Source: Aquificaceae bacterium
GTDB taxonomy: Bacteria; Aquificota; Aquificia; Aquificales; Aquificaceae
Assembly: GCA_037924335.1 (NCBI GenBank)
Contig: JAXSMZ010000002.1
Location: forward strand, 91,255-155,254
Direction of reading: 5' to 3'
DNA length: 64,000 nt
The notes below the pieces were generated by a model, which was not told the DNA's origin, ran no database searches, and saw only the letters and a program-made list of their open reading frames with translations. Shown here piece by piece: positions 7,259 through 39,155 of the stretch (position 1 is its first letter; each line of letters begins with the position of its first letter). A program made the translations under genes and the position numbers.

Positions 7259-8581
7259 TTAATCTAACCCGCTTTTAGAACCTATCAAAGATAAAGCTCT
7301 GTCCATCTCCTCCCTTTTCCTCTTTTCCGTTACTGCTATAAGGAGAGTGTCCCTGTAACCCCATCTTTCCAAGGATACTCCAAAGAGAAAGCCATGGTCT
7401 AAGAGCTCTTTACGTATACGGTTGGCTCTGGGGTGCTTGAGGGGAAATTCCCACAAGTGCTTACCGCTGAAGACATCTTCAAAACCTAACTCTAATAGTT
7501 TACTCTTTAGATAAAGGGCCTTTGATATACTCTGATGAGCAACCTCTCTGATACCTTCTTTCCCCAAAAGAACCATGTAAATGGCGTTGGCAATAACCAT
7601 CAAGTTTTGATTGGTACAGATGTTTGATGTGGCTTTCTCCCTTCTTATGTGCTGCTCCCTTGTTTGAAGCACTAAGGTGAAAGCCCTTCTTCCCTCAATG
7701 TCTTCGCCAAGACCAGTGACCCTTCCAGGCATCTTCCTTACGTACTCTTTCTTTGTTGCAAAAAAGCCTGCGTAAGGACCGCCAAAGCTCAAGGGTATAC
7801 CGAGCTGTTGCCCTTCTCCAACAACTATGTCTGCTCCAAATTCACCTGGAGGCTTTAGAAGAGCAAGAGCTATTGGGTCTGCCACAACTACAAAGAGAAC
7901 AGACCTCTCTTTTGCAAGCTTGCCTATTTCTGTAAGGGGCTCAACAAAACCTAAGAAGTTGGGATACTGAACAGCTATAGCATAAGCGTCATCCAAGCTC
8001 TTCTCAAGAATATTCAGGTCAGTATACCCATCATGGTATAAGGGAACCGTTAGAATTTCATCCTTATGCCCCATAAGATAGGTGTGCACAACGCTCTTGT
8101 AGAAGGGATGCACACCTTCTGAAAGTACAACCCTTTTTCCACTCCCCTTTATAGACCTTGCCATGAGTATAGCCTCTGCTAAGGCTGATGCACCATCGTA
8201 AACACCGGCGCTTGCTACATCCATACCAGTAAGCTGACAGATTAGCGTTTGGTATTCAAAAAGGGCTTGAAGAGTTCCCTGTGATGCTTCAGCTTGGTAA
8301 GGAGTGTAAGATGTTAAAAACTCCCCCCTGTTTAGGATCTGCCATATGGCGGATGGCACTATCCTATCGTAGGCTCCAAAGCCAGCAAAGGTTATCAATA
8401 CCCTGTTCTTTGAGGAGATCTTTCTAAAGGTTTCTCTTATCTCCTCCTCAGATAGGGGTAGGTCAAGCTTTGGAGGTATTAGCAAGCCTTTTTCTATATG
8501 TGAAAAGAGGTCCTCAAGGGAAGAAAGGCCTAAGCTTTTGAGTATTTCCTTTACTTCTTCATCCGAATGGGGAATGTACAT
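7259..8581 (-). CDS. gcvPA: Glycine dehydrogenase (decarboxylating) subunit 1
   Basis: TSYTPYQAEASQG, GGPYAG, LQTREQHIRREKATSNICTNQ. Confidence 0.95.
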   Translation of the reverse strand: MYIPHSDEEVKEILKSLGLSSLEDLFSHIEKGLLIPPKLDLPLSEEEIRETFRKISSKNRVLITFAGFGAYDRIVPSAIWQILNRGEFLTSYTPYQAEASQGTLQALFEYQTLICQLTGMDVASAGVYDGASALAEAILMARSIKGSGKRVVLSEGVHPFYKSVVHTYLMGHKDEILTVPLYHDGYTDLNILEKSLDDAYAIAVQYPNFLGFVEPLTEIGKLAKERSVLFVVVADPIALALLKPPGEFGADIVVGEGQQLGIPLSFGGPYAGFFATKKEYVRKMPGRVTGLGEDIEGRRAFTLVLQTREQHIRREKATSNICTNQNLMVIANAIYMVLLGKEGIREVAHQSISKALYLKSKLLELGFEDVFSGKHLWEFPLKHPRANRIRKELLDHGFLFGVSLERWGYRDTLLIAVTEKRKREEMDRALSLIGSKSGLD

Positions 8582-9102
8582 TATTTCTCTCTTTCCTCAT
8601 AACCGAGCTCTTCTTCCGGTAGCGATTCAATGGACTCTTCGTAAGATGGTGTTATCTCCTCTTCCAAAAGCACCTCTTCTCCCTTCTCGTCTTTTATAAC
8701 TTCAACTAGAAGCTCCGCATAATCCTGCGCTGGCATCAGGTCTTCTATCTCTATTGGGTCTGATATCTCTATAACGGCTATCCATCCATCATCGTAAGGG
8801 GACTCATTTATAAGGTGAGGCTCATCAACAAGCTGTTCATTTACCTCCACAACAGTTCCAGATAGCGGGGAGTAAACTGGGGAAATGTTCTTAACAGATT
8901 CTATGTTTGCCATGGTGTCCGCACTTTCAAAGCTCTGTCCTACAGAGGGCAAATCCACATAGACTATATCCCCAAGCTCCTTCTGAGCATAGTCCGTTAT
9001 TCCTACCCAGGCTCTGTTACCCTTAACAAGCACCCACTCATGCTCTTTTGTGTAATACCTATCCGTCCTAACTGTATACTTACCTACAGTTATCTCATCC
9101 AT
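8581..9102 (-). CDS. gcvH: Glycine cleavage H (lipoyl carrier) protein with acidic C-terminal tail
   Basis: YTKEHEW..VGITDYAQ.ELGDIVYV, ESVK lipoyl lysine, INESPYDDGW. Confidence 0.92.
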   Translation of the reverse strand: MDEITVGKYTVRTDRYYTKEHEWVLVKGNRAWVGITDYAQKELGDIVYVDLPSVGQSFESADTMANIESVKNISPVYSPLSGTVVEVNEQLVDEPHLINESPYDDGWIAVIEISDPIEIEDLMPAQDYAELLVEVIKDEKGEEVLLEEEITPSYEESIESLPEEELGYEEREK

Positions 9103-21177: not shown

Positions 21178-21750
21178 ATGGACAGAAAAGAGGAGATACT
21201 GAGGCTGATAGAGGAGGGTTATAACAACGTAAAGTCTCTTTCTCAGCACTTTGGCGTTTCTCTTATGACAATATACAGGGATGTAAGGGACCTAGAGAAG
21301 GAAGGGAAGATAGTAAGAAAGCATGGAGAGCTAAAGCTTAAAGAGGAAGAAGCCAAAGATGAGAAAGTGGATGTCTGTTTTTACTGTACCAAGCAGGTAG
21401 ACAAGAGGCTTGAGTTTATTTATCATCTAAAGGGGAGGAAGATAAAAGCCTGTTGTGCTCACTGTGGGCTTTTACTGTATAAGGATATAAAAGAGGATGA
21501 TGTGGAATCTTGCATGACTTGGGACTTTATAACTGGAAACCCCATAAGTTGCTACTCTGCCTGGTACGTGGTAGGGTCATCGGCTCTTCCGTGCTGTAGC
21601 CCATCCGCTATAGCTTTTGCCAACAGAGAGGATGCTCAGAAGTTTGCCAAGGGTTTTGGTGGTGCGGTTTTGGACTTTGAAAGGGCCGTTAAGGGAATAG
21701 TCGAGCTTATGAAAAGGGGACAGAGGGTGGAGTTTATAGCAAAAGGATGA
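21178..21750 (+). CDS. DeoR-type HTH regulator with Cys-rich NosL-like domain (YcnK-like)
   Basis: FGVS.MTIYRD..LE HTH; CFYC, CCAHCG, PCCSPS..AF...DA.KF...FGG. Confidence 0.8.
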   Translation: MDRKEEILRLIEEGYNNVKSLSQHFGVSLMTIYRDVRDLEKEGKIVRKHGELKLKEEEAKDEKVDVCFYCTKQVDKRLEFIYHLKGRKIKACCAHCGLLLYKDIKEDDVESCMTWDFITGNPISCYSAWYVVGSSALPCCSPSAIAFANREDAQKFAKGFGGAVLDFERAVKGIVELMKRGQRVEFIAKG

Positions 21751-22349
21751 TGTACATAGCAATACTTCTTATCTTGTTCCTCAGCGCTTGCGCTCCAGTC
21801 CCTAAGCTTGTACCGAGGGAAAGCCAAGTTGTGAAGAAGGAAGACAATGCCCTTCTTTATCAGGAGGATAACGTAAAAGTTCTTGTACGCTCTAACGCAT
21901 GGAAGTATTCCCCATCAGACCTCACAAGCTATATAACACCCATTTACATAGAGGTCAAAAACCTCTCCAACAAAGAACTCATCATAAACAGACAGGACGT
22001 ATACCTAATGGATGAAAAGGGCAACCAGTACAACGCCCTTTCTCCATCGGATGTTGTCTCCGCTGTTGCTGCATGGCCAGACGTGAGTTTCTCTATAGGC
22101 ATGGCTTACTACTCCTCCCCCTTCTGGTTTGGCTGGTATCCTTACTATCCTTACCCAACTGCCAGGAGCTATCCAGACATCGCCAACTACGCCTTTATAT
22201 ACGGTAGCATAGAGCCAGGAGCTGTGTTAAAGGGTTTTGTGTACTTTCAGAAGGTTCCCAAAGATGTAAAGAGTCTGTCTTTAAAACTTGTCTATCATAT
22301 ATCAGGAGAGAGGAAAGCCGTCAGCTTTCCTTTTGATGTGATAAGGTAG
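21747..22349 (+). CDS. Putative lipoprotein
   Basis: Lipobox LSAC after a hydrophobic signal. Confidence 0.75.
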   Translation: MMYIAILLILFLSACAPVPKLVPRESQVVKKEDNALLYQEDNVKVLVRSNAWKYSPSDLTSYITPIYIEVKNLSNKELIINRQDVYLMDEKGNQYNALSPSDVVSAVAAWPDVSFSIGMAYYSSPFWFGWYPYYPYPTARSYPDIANYAFIYGSIEPGAVLKGFVYFQKVPKDVKSLSLKLVYHISGERKAVSFPFDVIR

Positions 22350-22356
22350 TTTTTAA

Positions 22357-22585
22357 CATAAATCTTGCAAGAAGTCTCCATCCTCTATAGGGTGGAGATG
22401 AATTGCAAAAACTTGACAAAGTTCATATGTCAGTCTATAATTATTTGTAGCTCTGAAAACCAAAGAGTTGGGCTCACCCACCTAACGGGTGGTAGGGCTG
22501 GAACGGTCCGAACTGAAGCCTGTGGAGAGGTGAAAAGCCTCCATGAAGCAGGAAGCTCCATCTTCTATAAGATGGAGTAGTTCAC
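22357..22585 (+). mobile_element. Non-autonomous IS200/IS605-type mini-element A (left-end hairpin, promoter, omegaRNA-like scaffold, right-end hairpin)
   Basis: Follows TTTAA; LE TTGCAA-GAAGT-CTCCATCC..GGGTGGAG-ATGAA-TTGCAA; RE GAAG-CTCCATCTT-CTAT-AAGATGGAG-TAGTTCAC; homologous to 38941-39155; excision restores the mscS end RTVYLK. Confidence 0.85.
22413..22441 (+). promoter_or_regulatory. Consensus sigma70 promoter inside mini-element A
   Basis: TTGACA-N17-TATAAT. Confidence 0.85.
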
Positions 22586-22605
22586 ATATACTGTCCTTAC
22601 AGGGA
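22448..22605 (+). ncRNA. Putative TnpB omegaRNA/reRNA (scaffold to 22585 plus about 16-20 nt flank-derived guide)
   Basis: Resembles tnpB 3'-end sequence (GGTAGGGCTGGAACGGTCCGAACT.AAGCCTGTGGAG..GAAGCAGGAAGCTCC..GTTCAC); hairpins co-vary with copy C; ends are inferred. Confidence 0.65.
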
Positions 22606-23596
22606 ATGGTATCTTTATGTTCTCCTCCTCGTATCTCTTTTTAAGCCTTTTTATGAACTCATGTCTTACCAAAAACTGGGCATCAGGGTCCATTACTCTT
22701 AAGATGACGCTAAAGTTTATGCTAAAGTCTCCAAAGCTCGAGTACCTTATGAAGGGTTCAAATTCTGGGTCTGCTCCCTCTACAGTCTTTTGAACCTCCC
22801 TTGCCACATCTACCGTCACGCTTTCCACCTTCTCAAGGTCCGAAGAGTAGCTCACACCTACAGGGATAATCAGAGCCATGGATGGCTCTGGTTTTCTGTA
22901 GTTTACCACCACAGAGCTAACAAGCTTTGAGTTTGGTACTACAACTATGTTGTTGTCCCTCCTTTTTATTACAGTATTCATCCAAGTTATATCCACAACA
23001 AAGCCCTCTTCCCCATCCTCTAACTTTACAAAGTCCCCTATCTCTACCTGTCTCGATGCGATTATATTAAGCCCAGAAAAGAAGTTGGACAAAGTTCCTT
23101 GGAGTGCTAAAGAAATAGCAAGAGCACCTATGCCTAAGGTTGTTATAAAGTGTGTGACTGGAACACCTAAGAAGTTGAGCAAAGTTATCACACCAAGGGC
23201 TATTACGGTAGCCCTTATAAGAGCGTATATCAACGCTGTTGGTGGTAAAGATATGTTGGACTTCTTTATATAAAGTTTTATTAGCCCTACAGTTAGCTCA
23301 GAAGCGGCAAAAGTAAAAGAGAATATCAGCAAACCTTCTATAAGTTTTTCTAAAAGTGATGCGTACCTTGTGTGTTTTTGTAAATATTCGGAAAAATAGA
23401 TAGCCAAGTAGAGTGAAAAAGAGAGGATCCAAAGTACAGATGGTAGCCTTACAGCTCTATGTAGAGTCTCAAATAAAGATACTCCTTTTAGCTTTTTCTT
23501 GAGAATGTGGAAGGTAATATATCGTAAGAAGAGAAGGAAAAAGGAAGAAACAAAGAAAATGAGCAAAGGTGATACATACACTTCCCAGTAATTCAA
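22565..23596 (-). CDS. mscS: Small-conductance mechanosensitive channel
   Basis: LALQGTLSNFFSG, IGDFV, VPNS, GVSY.SD, IPFPVRTVY; the current stop lies inside mini-element A. Confidence 0.92.
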   Translation of the reverse strand: MNYWEVYVSPLLIFFVSSFFLLFLRYITFHILKKKLKGVSLFETLHRAVRLPSVLWILSFSLYLAIYFSEYLQKHTRYASLLEKLIEGLLIFSFTFAASELTVGLIKLYIKKSNISLPPTALIYALIRATVIALGVITLLNFLGVPVTHFITTLGIGALAISLALQGTLSNFFSGLNIIASRQVEIGDFVKLEDGEEGFVVDITWMNTVIKRRDNNIVVVPNSKLVSSVVVNYRKPEPSMALIIPVGVSYSSDLEKVESVTVDVAREVQKTVEGADPEFEPFIRYSSFGDFSINFSVILRVMDPDAQFLVRHEFIKRLKKRYEEENIKIPFPVRTVYVNYSIL

Positions 23597-38657: not shown

Positions 38658-38875
38658 GAAACCTCCACAAGAAGGCTCTCCTTTTCAAAGGAGAGATGAA
38701 TTGTGGAAATATGATTAAAATCATACAACAAAAACAAAGAAAAAATTATTATAATAATAATAATAATAATAATATCCTCTGGTATGCGGGATATAGCATA
38801 CCCTACCGTTGGACTGACGGGAAGTTAAGCCCTGAGGAAGGGAAGCTCCTCATTTTAATGAGGAGAGGAAGTCAC
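38658..38875 (+). mobile_element. Non-autonomous IS200/IS605-type mini-element B (second subfamily, TTAC target)
   Basis: Follows TTTAC; LE CCACAA-GAAGG-CTCTCCTTT-TC-AAAGGAGAG-ATGAA-TTGTGG; TACCGTTGGACTGACGGGAAGTTAAGCC scaffold; RE GAAG-CTCCTCATT-TT-AATGAGGAG-AGGAAGTCAC; excision restores the host frame. Confidence 0.82.
38753..38773. repeat. (AAT)7 microsatellite inside element B
   Basis: Seven perfect AAT units overlapping a TATAAT at 38750-38755. Confidence 0.9.
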
Positions 38876-38940: not shown

Positions 38941-39155
38941 CACAACTTTTTGCAAGAAGTCTCCGAGATGAATTGCAAAAAACTTGACAAAGAAAGGAAA
39001 ATAAAATACAATATAAAAAGTCCTGATAACCAAAGGAATGGGCTCACTCACCTAACGGGTGGTAGGGCAGGGACTGTCCGAACTCAAGCCTGTGGAGAGG
39101 TGAAAAACCTCTATAAAGCAGGAAGCTCCCACTTCTATAAGTGGGAATAGTTCAC
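38941..39155 (+). mobile_element. Non-autonomous IS200/IS605-type mini-element C (same family as A; 15-nt deletion in the LE hairpin)
   Basis: Follows TTTAA; collinear with element A; ends AGTTCAC. Confidence 0.85.
38984..39012 (+). promoter_or_regulatory. sigma70 promoter inside mini-element C
   Basis: TTGACA-N17-TACAAT at the same position as in A, with a diverged spacer. Confidence 0.8.

Follow-up and report, generated by a model that had tools for sequence, protein, structure and literature searches.

A gene-less element at the end of mscS in an Aquificaceae bacterium, and a hairpin that it shares with tnpB coding sequences

We analysed a 64,000-nt stretch of DNA, referred to here as the window, from an Aquificaceae bacterium (GCA_037924335.1, contig JAXSMZ010000002.1; genome label G000). 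Within it, a 229-bp element lies in the last codons of mscS, next to a convergent lipoprotein-like gene:

21747..22349, plus strand: lipoprotein-like gene, convergent to mscS, with a 29-nt overlap with mscS in the empty allele
22352..22356, plus strand: TTTAA target, or transposon-adjacent motif; host DNA that is kept in empty alleles and precedes other copies
22357-22585, plus strand: the element, 229 bp, between TTTAA (22352-22356) and ATATAC
22565..23596, minus strand: mscS, its last 11 residues swapped for 6 element-coded ones

With the element in place, MscS ends in VRTVYVNYSIL* at a stop codon (22565-22567) inside the right-end hairpin. Cutting the element out in silico gives the minus-strand MscS end FPVRTVYLKTTLSHQKES*. 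On reading the sequence, a shift of the boundary by one base gives another junction, and there is therefore no target duplication. The Pfam domain MS_channel_3rd is matched to its last position and ends at residue 329 of the 343 in MscS; because the Pfam domains stop before the altered tail, the channel is likely unharmed.

The boundaries, the TTTAA target, the absence of duplication and the altered MscS end had all been proposed from the sequence alone, and real empty alleles agree with them. In genome G006, which is of the same genus, syntenic and 87-92% identical here, the orthologous mscS locus lacks the element and joins 22356 directly to 22586, exactly as predicted, with an MscS that ends in VYLKTVSQHQKGS*. 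In metagenome run X8, one 12.6-kb contig with a depth of 64 and 0 ambiguous letters skips exactly 229 bases from 22356 to 22586. The empty joint was found in this one of four metagenome runs; X1 and X5 are filled, and X7 has no coverage of the junction. An exact-match scan of metagenome contigs for the empty junction returned 7 matches, none in an mscS gene, which we ascribe to chance. The predicted overlap of the restored MscS end with the lipoprotein gene is also real (29 nt). That gene is present in the X8 contig and deleted in G006, where nearly all of it is lost from the empty site (L076, contig C51) and only some short pieces remain, together with the portion that mscS overlaps. The insertion is strain-specific, and the element-free relative shows the ancestral state.

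By its sequence organization, the 229-bp segment belongs to the gene-less derivatives of IS200/IS605 elements (PATEs) and consists of a left end, a sigma-70 promoter, a predicted TnpB guide-RNA scaffold and a right end:

22357..22408, plus strand: left end, with subterminal hairpin 22365-22408 and DNA guide tetramer AAGT at 22372-22375; fold z -4.0
22413..22441, plus strand: sigma-70 promoter TTGACA-17-TATAAT, 12/12 consensus, predicted start near 22447
22448..22470, plus strand: leader hairpin, 7-bp stem and 9-nt loop GAAAACCAA (22455-22463)
22470..22585, plus strand: predicted omega-RNA scaffold, derived from a tnpB 3' end
22552..22585, plus strand: right end, with guide tetramer GAAG, hairpin 22555-22578 and terminal TTCAC; fold z -4.4
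22586..22605, plus strand: predicted guide, in host flank and antisense to mscS, placed by analogy to ISDra2 as given in the available text of PMC10097598

The 229 bp contain only short spurious ORFs and no transposase or nuclease gene. The 25 longest inverted repeats of the window include no terminal inverted repeats of the element, and no terminator-like site was called within the element. Full-length relatives have a similar promoter directly after the left hairpin, and the promoter here is likely that of the parent element. The 116-nt scaffold and the 3' end of a tnpB remnant on contig C37 share 94% identity. It includes a RAGATH-18-like core (22519-22554) and a predicted pseudoknot between GAAC (22510-22513) and GTTC (22580-22583). 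Among 10 aligned sequences, compensatory pairs are present in the scaffold, and the pseudoknot is conserved but without two-sided change. The leader hairpin (22448-22470) follows directly on the promoter; tnpB 3' ends do not have it.

Near-full copies are found elsewhere in G000 on C4 (96%), on C23 (91%) and in the window itself:

38941..39155, plus strand: second, diverged copy, 81% identity; left hairpin collapsed, leader hairpin bulged

There is also a short copy on C20, one on C19 with a different left end, and pieces at contig edges. The other copies in G000 begin after TTTAA and finish in TTCAC; their leader hairpin is damaged on C4 and missing on C20. Element matches occur in 14 of 41 related genomes. 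The ends are shared with elements that carry both a Y1 tnpA and tnpB, on contig C8 of G007 (TnpA with a stop) and in G038 (open TnpA, PF01797 E 1.6e-44), and the right end recurs on both. Left-end tetramer and target covary, AAGT with TTTAA 17 times, AAGG with TTTAC 4 times and AAGC with TTTAG twice, with 1 exception, in counts drawn from 60 regex matches, some of which are mis-anchored or due to chance. The exact pairing register of the left-end guide with its target reportedly comes from work on IS608. A left-end DNA guide that matches the target is the behaviour described for ISGst elements in the available text of PMC10055086.

Neither a Y1 TnpA, by family or protein search, nor an intact matching tnpB was found in the 39-contig G000 assembly, in which repeats may be unassembled. 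What matching tnpB sequence there is consists of a 5' part with a frameshift on C16, a part lacking its 5' end on C37, and pieces at the edges of C39 and C1. Markers put the completeness of the assembly at 99.94%, but many of its contigs end in tnpB, so lack of TnpA and TnpB from the assembly does not equal their absence from the genome. Near-identical copies sit at different sites in these 39 contigs without a TnpA, and the system looks dormant in G000.

Several other element arrangements were noted. At 38658-38875 in the window, 65 bp before the second copy, lies a miniature of a different family (target TTTAC, tetramer AAGG). It contains a run of AAT and has a leader hairpin of its own, whose loop is 8 nt long; C4, C8, C11, C23 and C30 carry related left ends. 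Nested elements at C35:1-200 and C1:215900-216255 of G000 have a TTTAG-type left end in opposite orientation inside or beside TTTAA-type ends. In G038 (L085), an integrase-type IS gene sits between the left end and tnpA of a complete parent-like element. At the end of contig C23 (1-1365, minus strand), an open 455-aa TnpB lacks the usual RuvC-II E-x-L motif and has another guide scaffold, and it shares the right-end hairpin of the element; homologues are on C24 and in L073. We take this TnpB to be, as seems likely, a rearranged type.

To place the element among published systems, here and below, we draw on parts of the cited texts. Like the PATEs of Haloquadratum (PMC3119063) and the Geobacillus ISGst PATEs (PMC10055086), it has no terminal inverted repeats, no target duplication and no gene, and it has subterminal palindromes and ends shared with tnpA/tnpB elements. 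The mscS insertion is in itself ordinary, a further case of a described kind. PATEs are said often to encode omega-RNAs used in trans (PMC10055086, PMC3119063). What distinguishes the element is the internal tnpB coding fragment that serves as its leader hairpin, which the available text of those two papers does not describe for PATEs. Standalone omega-RNAs (PMC10691335) are likewise mobilized guide cassettes without effector or transposase, and act in trans according to work cited there; a 5' hairpin shared with the effector coding sequence, as seen here, goes unmentioned in the available text of that paper. The ISDra2 TnpB omega-RNA (PMC10097598) resembles the predicted guide RNA in its 116-nt scaffold before the right end, terminal pseudoknot and flank-derived guide, and the ISDra2 TnpB structures PDB 8h1j and 8bf8 were matched (E 6e-79). 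The target, however, is TTTAA rather than TTGAT, and the TnpB clade has ENQ where ISDra2 TnpB has EYE and no ENQ. RNA upstream of the ISDra2 scaffold is dispensable for cutting (PMC10097598). RAGATH-18 (Rfam RF03064; ISFba1 IS607 TnpB, PMC11061315) shares with the element a CCTGTGGAG...GAAGCAGGAA core, in a match of 31.5 bits, below the gathering score of 44.9. The ends of the element are IS605-type with a Y1 TnpA, in contrast to the IS607 context of RAGATH-18 (PMC11061315). We considered and rejected an IS607 identity: the partner transposase is a Y1 and not a serine-recombinase TnpA, and the ends are of the hairpin type.

The leader hairpin itself led to tnpB. Its loop corresponds to a run of E/D-N/S-Q codons that immediately precedes the RuvC-II glutamate in tnpB; on C37 a distance of 413 nt separates it from the right end. 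The folded stretch is more stable than 95% of synonymous recodings in 13 of 22 nearby ENQ-type genes. We reduced 127 tnpB ORFs to 71 representatives with <85% amino acid identity, 49 of them ENQ-type and 22 non-ENQ. Among the 49, the Asn codon is AAC in 42 of 48 cases (20.3 expected; the highest of 126 columns), the Gln codon is CAA in every gene (49/49; 32.9 expected), and C is the last base of the preceding codon in 41 of 49 genes (16.1 expected); no such bias is seen in the 8 other conserved Asn/Gln columns. The numbers of genes in which the three closing pairs form, 48, 47 and 35 of 49 (shuffle means 42.8, 38.6 and 18.7), were reached in 0 of 5000 shuffles, which ignore kinship. When the motif columns are left out of tree building, the three pairs change Watson-Crick type 6, 11 and 11 times along the tree, and the reading frame of the motif changes twice.

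Across all representatives, the motif occurs at the pre-RuvC-II site in 55 of 71 genes, compared with 18 hits in 3437 windows elsewhere, and is lacking in 16. The ENQ-type share of this count (46/49) is partly circular, as the loop pattern came from the ENQ codons. Nine of the 22 non-ENQ genes have the motif. In four of these, which fall on two branches of the tree, it is in another reading frame; the remaining five have a loop variant of the form A...C. Furthermore, the sense strand folds better in 43 of the 55 motif genes (control 46%). The hairpin is conserved in tnpB at the nucleotide level. Given the codon bias, the pairing switches, the two frames and the sense-strand folding, this reflects selection on the nucleic acid, most likely as RNA. 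A sliding folding-energy scan does not single out the site (-0.48 vs -1.8 near codon 100), and the folding signal near codon 100 revealed no common structure on inspection. In 70 cases, pairing of the loop with its own guide region was not above that of other loop variants, and no pairing partner was found. Elsewhere in the tnpB alignment, synonymous bias is strong at Leu38 (CTT) and Phe100 (TTC) in reference codons. By eye only, an unrelated TnpB, ortholog 35 in PMC10278001 supplement 2, was seen to have the same 9-nt loop with three C-G/G-C closing pairs in its zinc-finger region, where it overlaps the guide RNA.

We searched 178 genomes with a pattern that combines the loop and the guide core, and obtained 18 matches in 12 genomes, against 5 in the control. 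Fourteen of the 18, in 9 of the 178 genomes and 7 genera, are true gene-less cassettes; their stems differ while the loop is identical, and some hairpins are bulged or decayed. Three scans of viral contigs for loop and guide core gave 23 matches in all, and the reversed-loop control gave 0/12. Ten of the viral matches, which belong to four lineages, combine a stem of 4-12 bp with a guide motif downstream, neither of which the pattern demands, and their retrieved flanks contain no tnpB; the others comprise 12 without stem and motif and 1 with the motif and no stem. The four viral lineages have unlike flanks and perfect stems of up to 12 bp, and several of the cassettes have no evident left end.

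Guide cores were also taken without regard to the hairpin. This set held 119 matches, 39 with only 300-nt flanks, for which the standalone label is weaker; after duplicates had been merged and 4 short-flank rows dropped, 29 standalone and 50 tnpB-attached cores remained. The strict hairpin is present in 2 of the 29, both close to relatives' elements, and about four further standalone cores have what we judged by eye to be bulged look-alikes. Near tnpB-attached cores the hairpin was found in 0 of 50. PATEs without it occur in G007, in G018 and twice in G004. The pattern was absent from 2 Firmicutes genomes, and in 401 genomes of the same phylum it gave 19 matches versus 10 in the control, near background in a set that was not inspected singly. 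In TAM screens in vitro, ENQ-type orthologs 11, 23 and 26 are active on scaffolds whose first base lies past the hairpin (from the available part of PMC10278001 supplement 2). We rejected the hairpin as a required part of the guide, since ENQ-type TnpBs are active without it and only those 2 of 29 standalone guides carry it. Some viral contigs hold several guide cassettes, both standalone and tnpB-attached (L284 and L286 on one contig; L315-L316; L340-L341), and one viral standalone family retains a longer tnpB fragment around the ENQ codons.

Rfam at the gathering level matched only rRNA and tRNA in the window, and searches by E-value produced matches to RAGATH-18 and HgcC below threshold, with none at the leader hairpin. 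A literature search, which included the loop sequence together with TnpB and had subscription papers, figures and the ISGst PATE alignments outside its scope, found the hairpin undescribed. The same holds for the available text of PMC10055086, PMC10097598, PMC11061315, PMC10278001, PMC10691335, PMC13639567, PMC3119063 and bioRxiv 2026.09.22.753285. The PATE with a predicted standalone omega-RNA is already known as a kind; the tnpB coding-sequence hairpin and its reuse by standalone guides appear to be new.

We propose, as the somewhat more probable account, that a PATE at TTTAA in the last mscS codons encodes a predicted standalone TnpB guide, and that the first hairpin of this guide, shared with tnpB, likely helps to load or protect it. 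The PATE most likely reached TTTAA through a Y1 TnpA acting in trans. A transcript starting at 22447 and crossing the right end would then supply a guide RNA, which TnpB made elsewhere could use to cut empty TTTAA sites (homing). The sense-strand hairpin may serve as an auxiliary signal in the RNA to which TnpB or a host protein binds; once bound, it might mark tnpB mRNA for ribonucleoprotein assembly or stabilize the guide precursor. Guide-only elements, which would depend on a foreign TnpB, could gain by keeping it, and some appear to have kept it across two deletions. This binding role, and its use to explain why guide-only derivatives keep the hairpin, is the least secure part of the proposal, and we hold it tentatively, at somewhat short of even chances. 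A bolder version strikes us as possible but rather doubtful: that the coding sequence in a large tnpB clade contains, about midway, a second, concealed RNA module with loop (G/A)ANARYCA(A/C), which would serve as a loading or licensing signal, constrain the residues beside RuvC-II and be repeatedly spliced by deletion onto the 5' end of gene-less cassettes to capture foreign TnpB.

Alternatively, the hairpin could act as single-stranded DNA in excision, circle processing or integration, through TnpA or a host factor, and be kept for mobility. IS200/IS605 transposition does use single-stranded DNA hairpins (available text of PMC10055086), and the motif is kept in mobile PATEs. We nevertheless regard this as unlikely, because in full elements the hairpin is far from both ends (413 nt from the right end on C37), its long stems are rich in G-T pairs with the sense strand favoured, in PATEs it stands at the predicted transcript start, and several of the viral cassettes have no evident left end.

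It is also improbable that the hairpin is a negative control in tnpB mRNA, such as a decoy, pause or decay signal, with which PATEs dampen or titrate TnpB. There is a precedent in AmaTnpB, where an mRNA segment next to RuvC-II inhibits cleavage and the authors leave its conservation open (PMC10278001); like the hairpin, that segment is an RNA feature of the tnpB coding sequence adjoining RuvC-II that affects the RNP. That TnpBs cut without the hairpin also fits. The AmaTnpB segment (nt 826-875), however, follows the catalytic Glu codon in a non-ENQ gene, does not have this 9-nt loop and, in the available text of PMC10278001, is not reported in standalone guides. Nor is the complementarity of loop and guide any greater than for other loop variants.

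We consider it very unlikely that the PATE hairpin is a neutral remnant of one ancestral deletion and the element a plain fossil. Most standalone guides do lack the hairpin, and the G000 copies are decaying with no transposase found, but a constant loop is closed by stems that differ throughout and that resemble different tnpB parents. The four viral lineages with unlike flanks and perfect stems of up to 12 bp also speak against it, and it would leave the conservation inside tnpB unexplained.

Returning to the preferred account, in which the hairpin is a signal in RNA, it bears on the means by which TnpB selects its own RNA and on the way standalone guides compete for TnpB. The role of standalone guides is called unknown in the available text of PMC10691335, and whether mRNA-level control is conserved is asked in that of PMC10278001. 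A nucleotide motif kept across reading frames is a precise and cheap target for mutation. If the account is true, the ENQ motif beside RuvC-II would be in part an RNA constraint, and codon-optimized TnpB editors would lose a native control element.

Finally, the sequence-only reading, in which the leader hairpin did not figure, had drawn attention to the guide as antisense to mscS and matching the empty allele beside TTTAA. The match is true, but it is not special, being a property of every TnpB element (available text of PMC10055086). A special link to mscS found no support: other copies clip or split unrelated genes (C4 clips the end of selA, C14 a convergent gene, and C23 splits a DUF2207 gene), and the guide has no target in G000. 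Among 5510 TTTAA-adjacent sites in G000, none matched it at 16 nt with <=4 mismatches or at 12 nt with <=1; for self-targeting by 12 element flanks in the same genome, the best match had 3 mismatches in 16 nt, and none was found at 12 nt with 1 mismatch. A TldR-type RNA-guided repressor of a host gene was rejected, there being no motif-adjacent target in the same genome. It is extremely improbable that the insertion owes its retention to antisense regulation of mscS by its transcript: a perfect promoter points into mscS and no terminator-like site was called in the element, but the insertion is strain-specific, other copies are at unrelated gene ends, the lipoprotein gene overlapped mscS already, and the filled genome has no target for RNA-guided DNA binding. 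The antisense orientation looks incidental, and we infer that in a compact genome tolerated insertions fall at gene ends. The C4 copy (2101-2326, L055) provides the stop codon of selA and changes only the last residues. The C23 copy (8380-8604; L066:1501-1725) splits the gene for a DUF2207 membrane protein, and an ATG in its right end shares the reading frame of the downstream half (305 aa), which the promoter of that copy might express.
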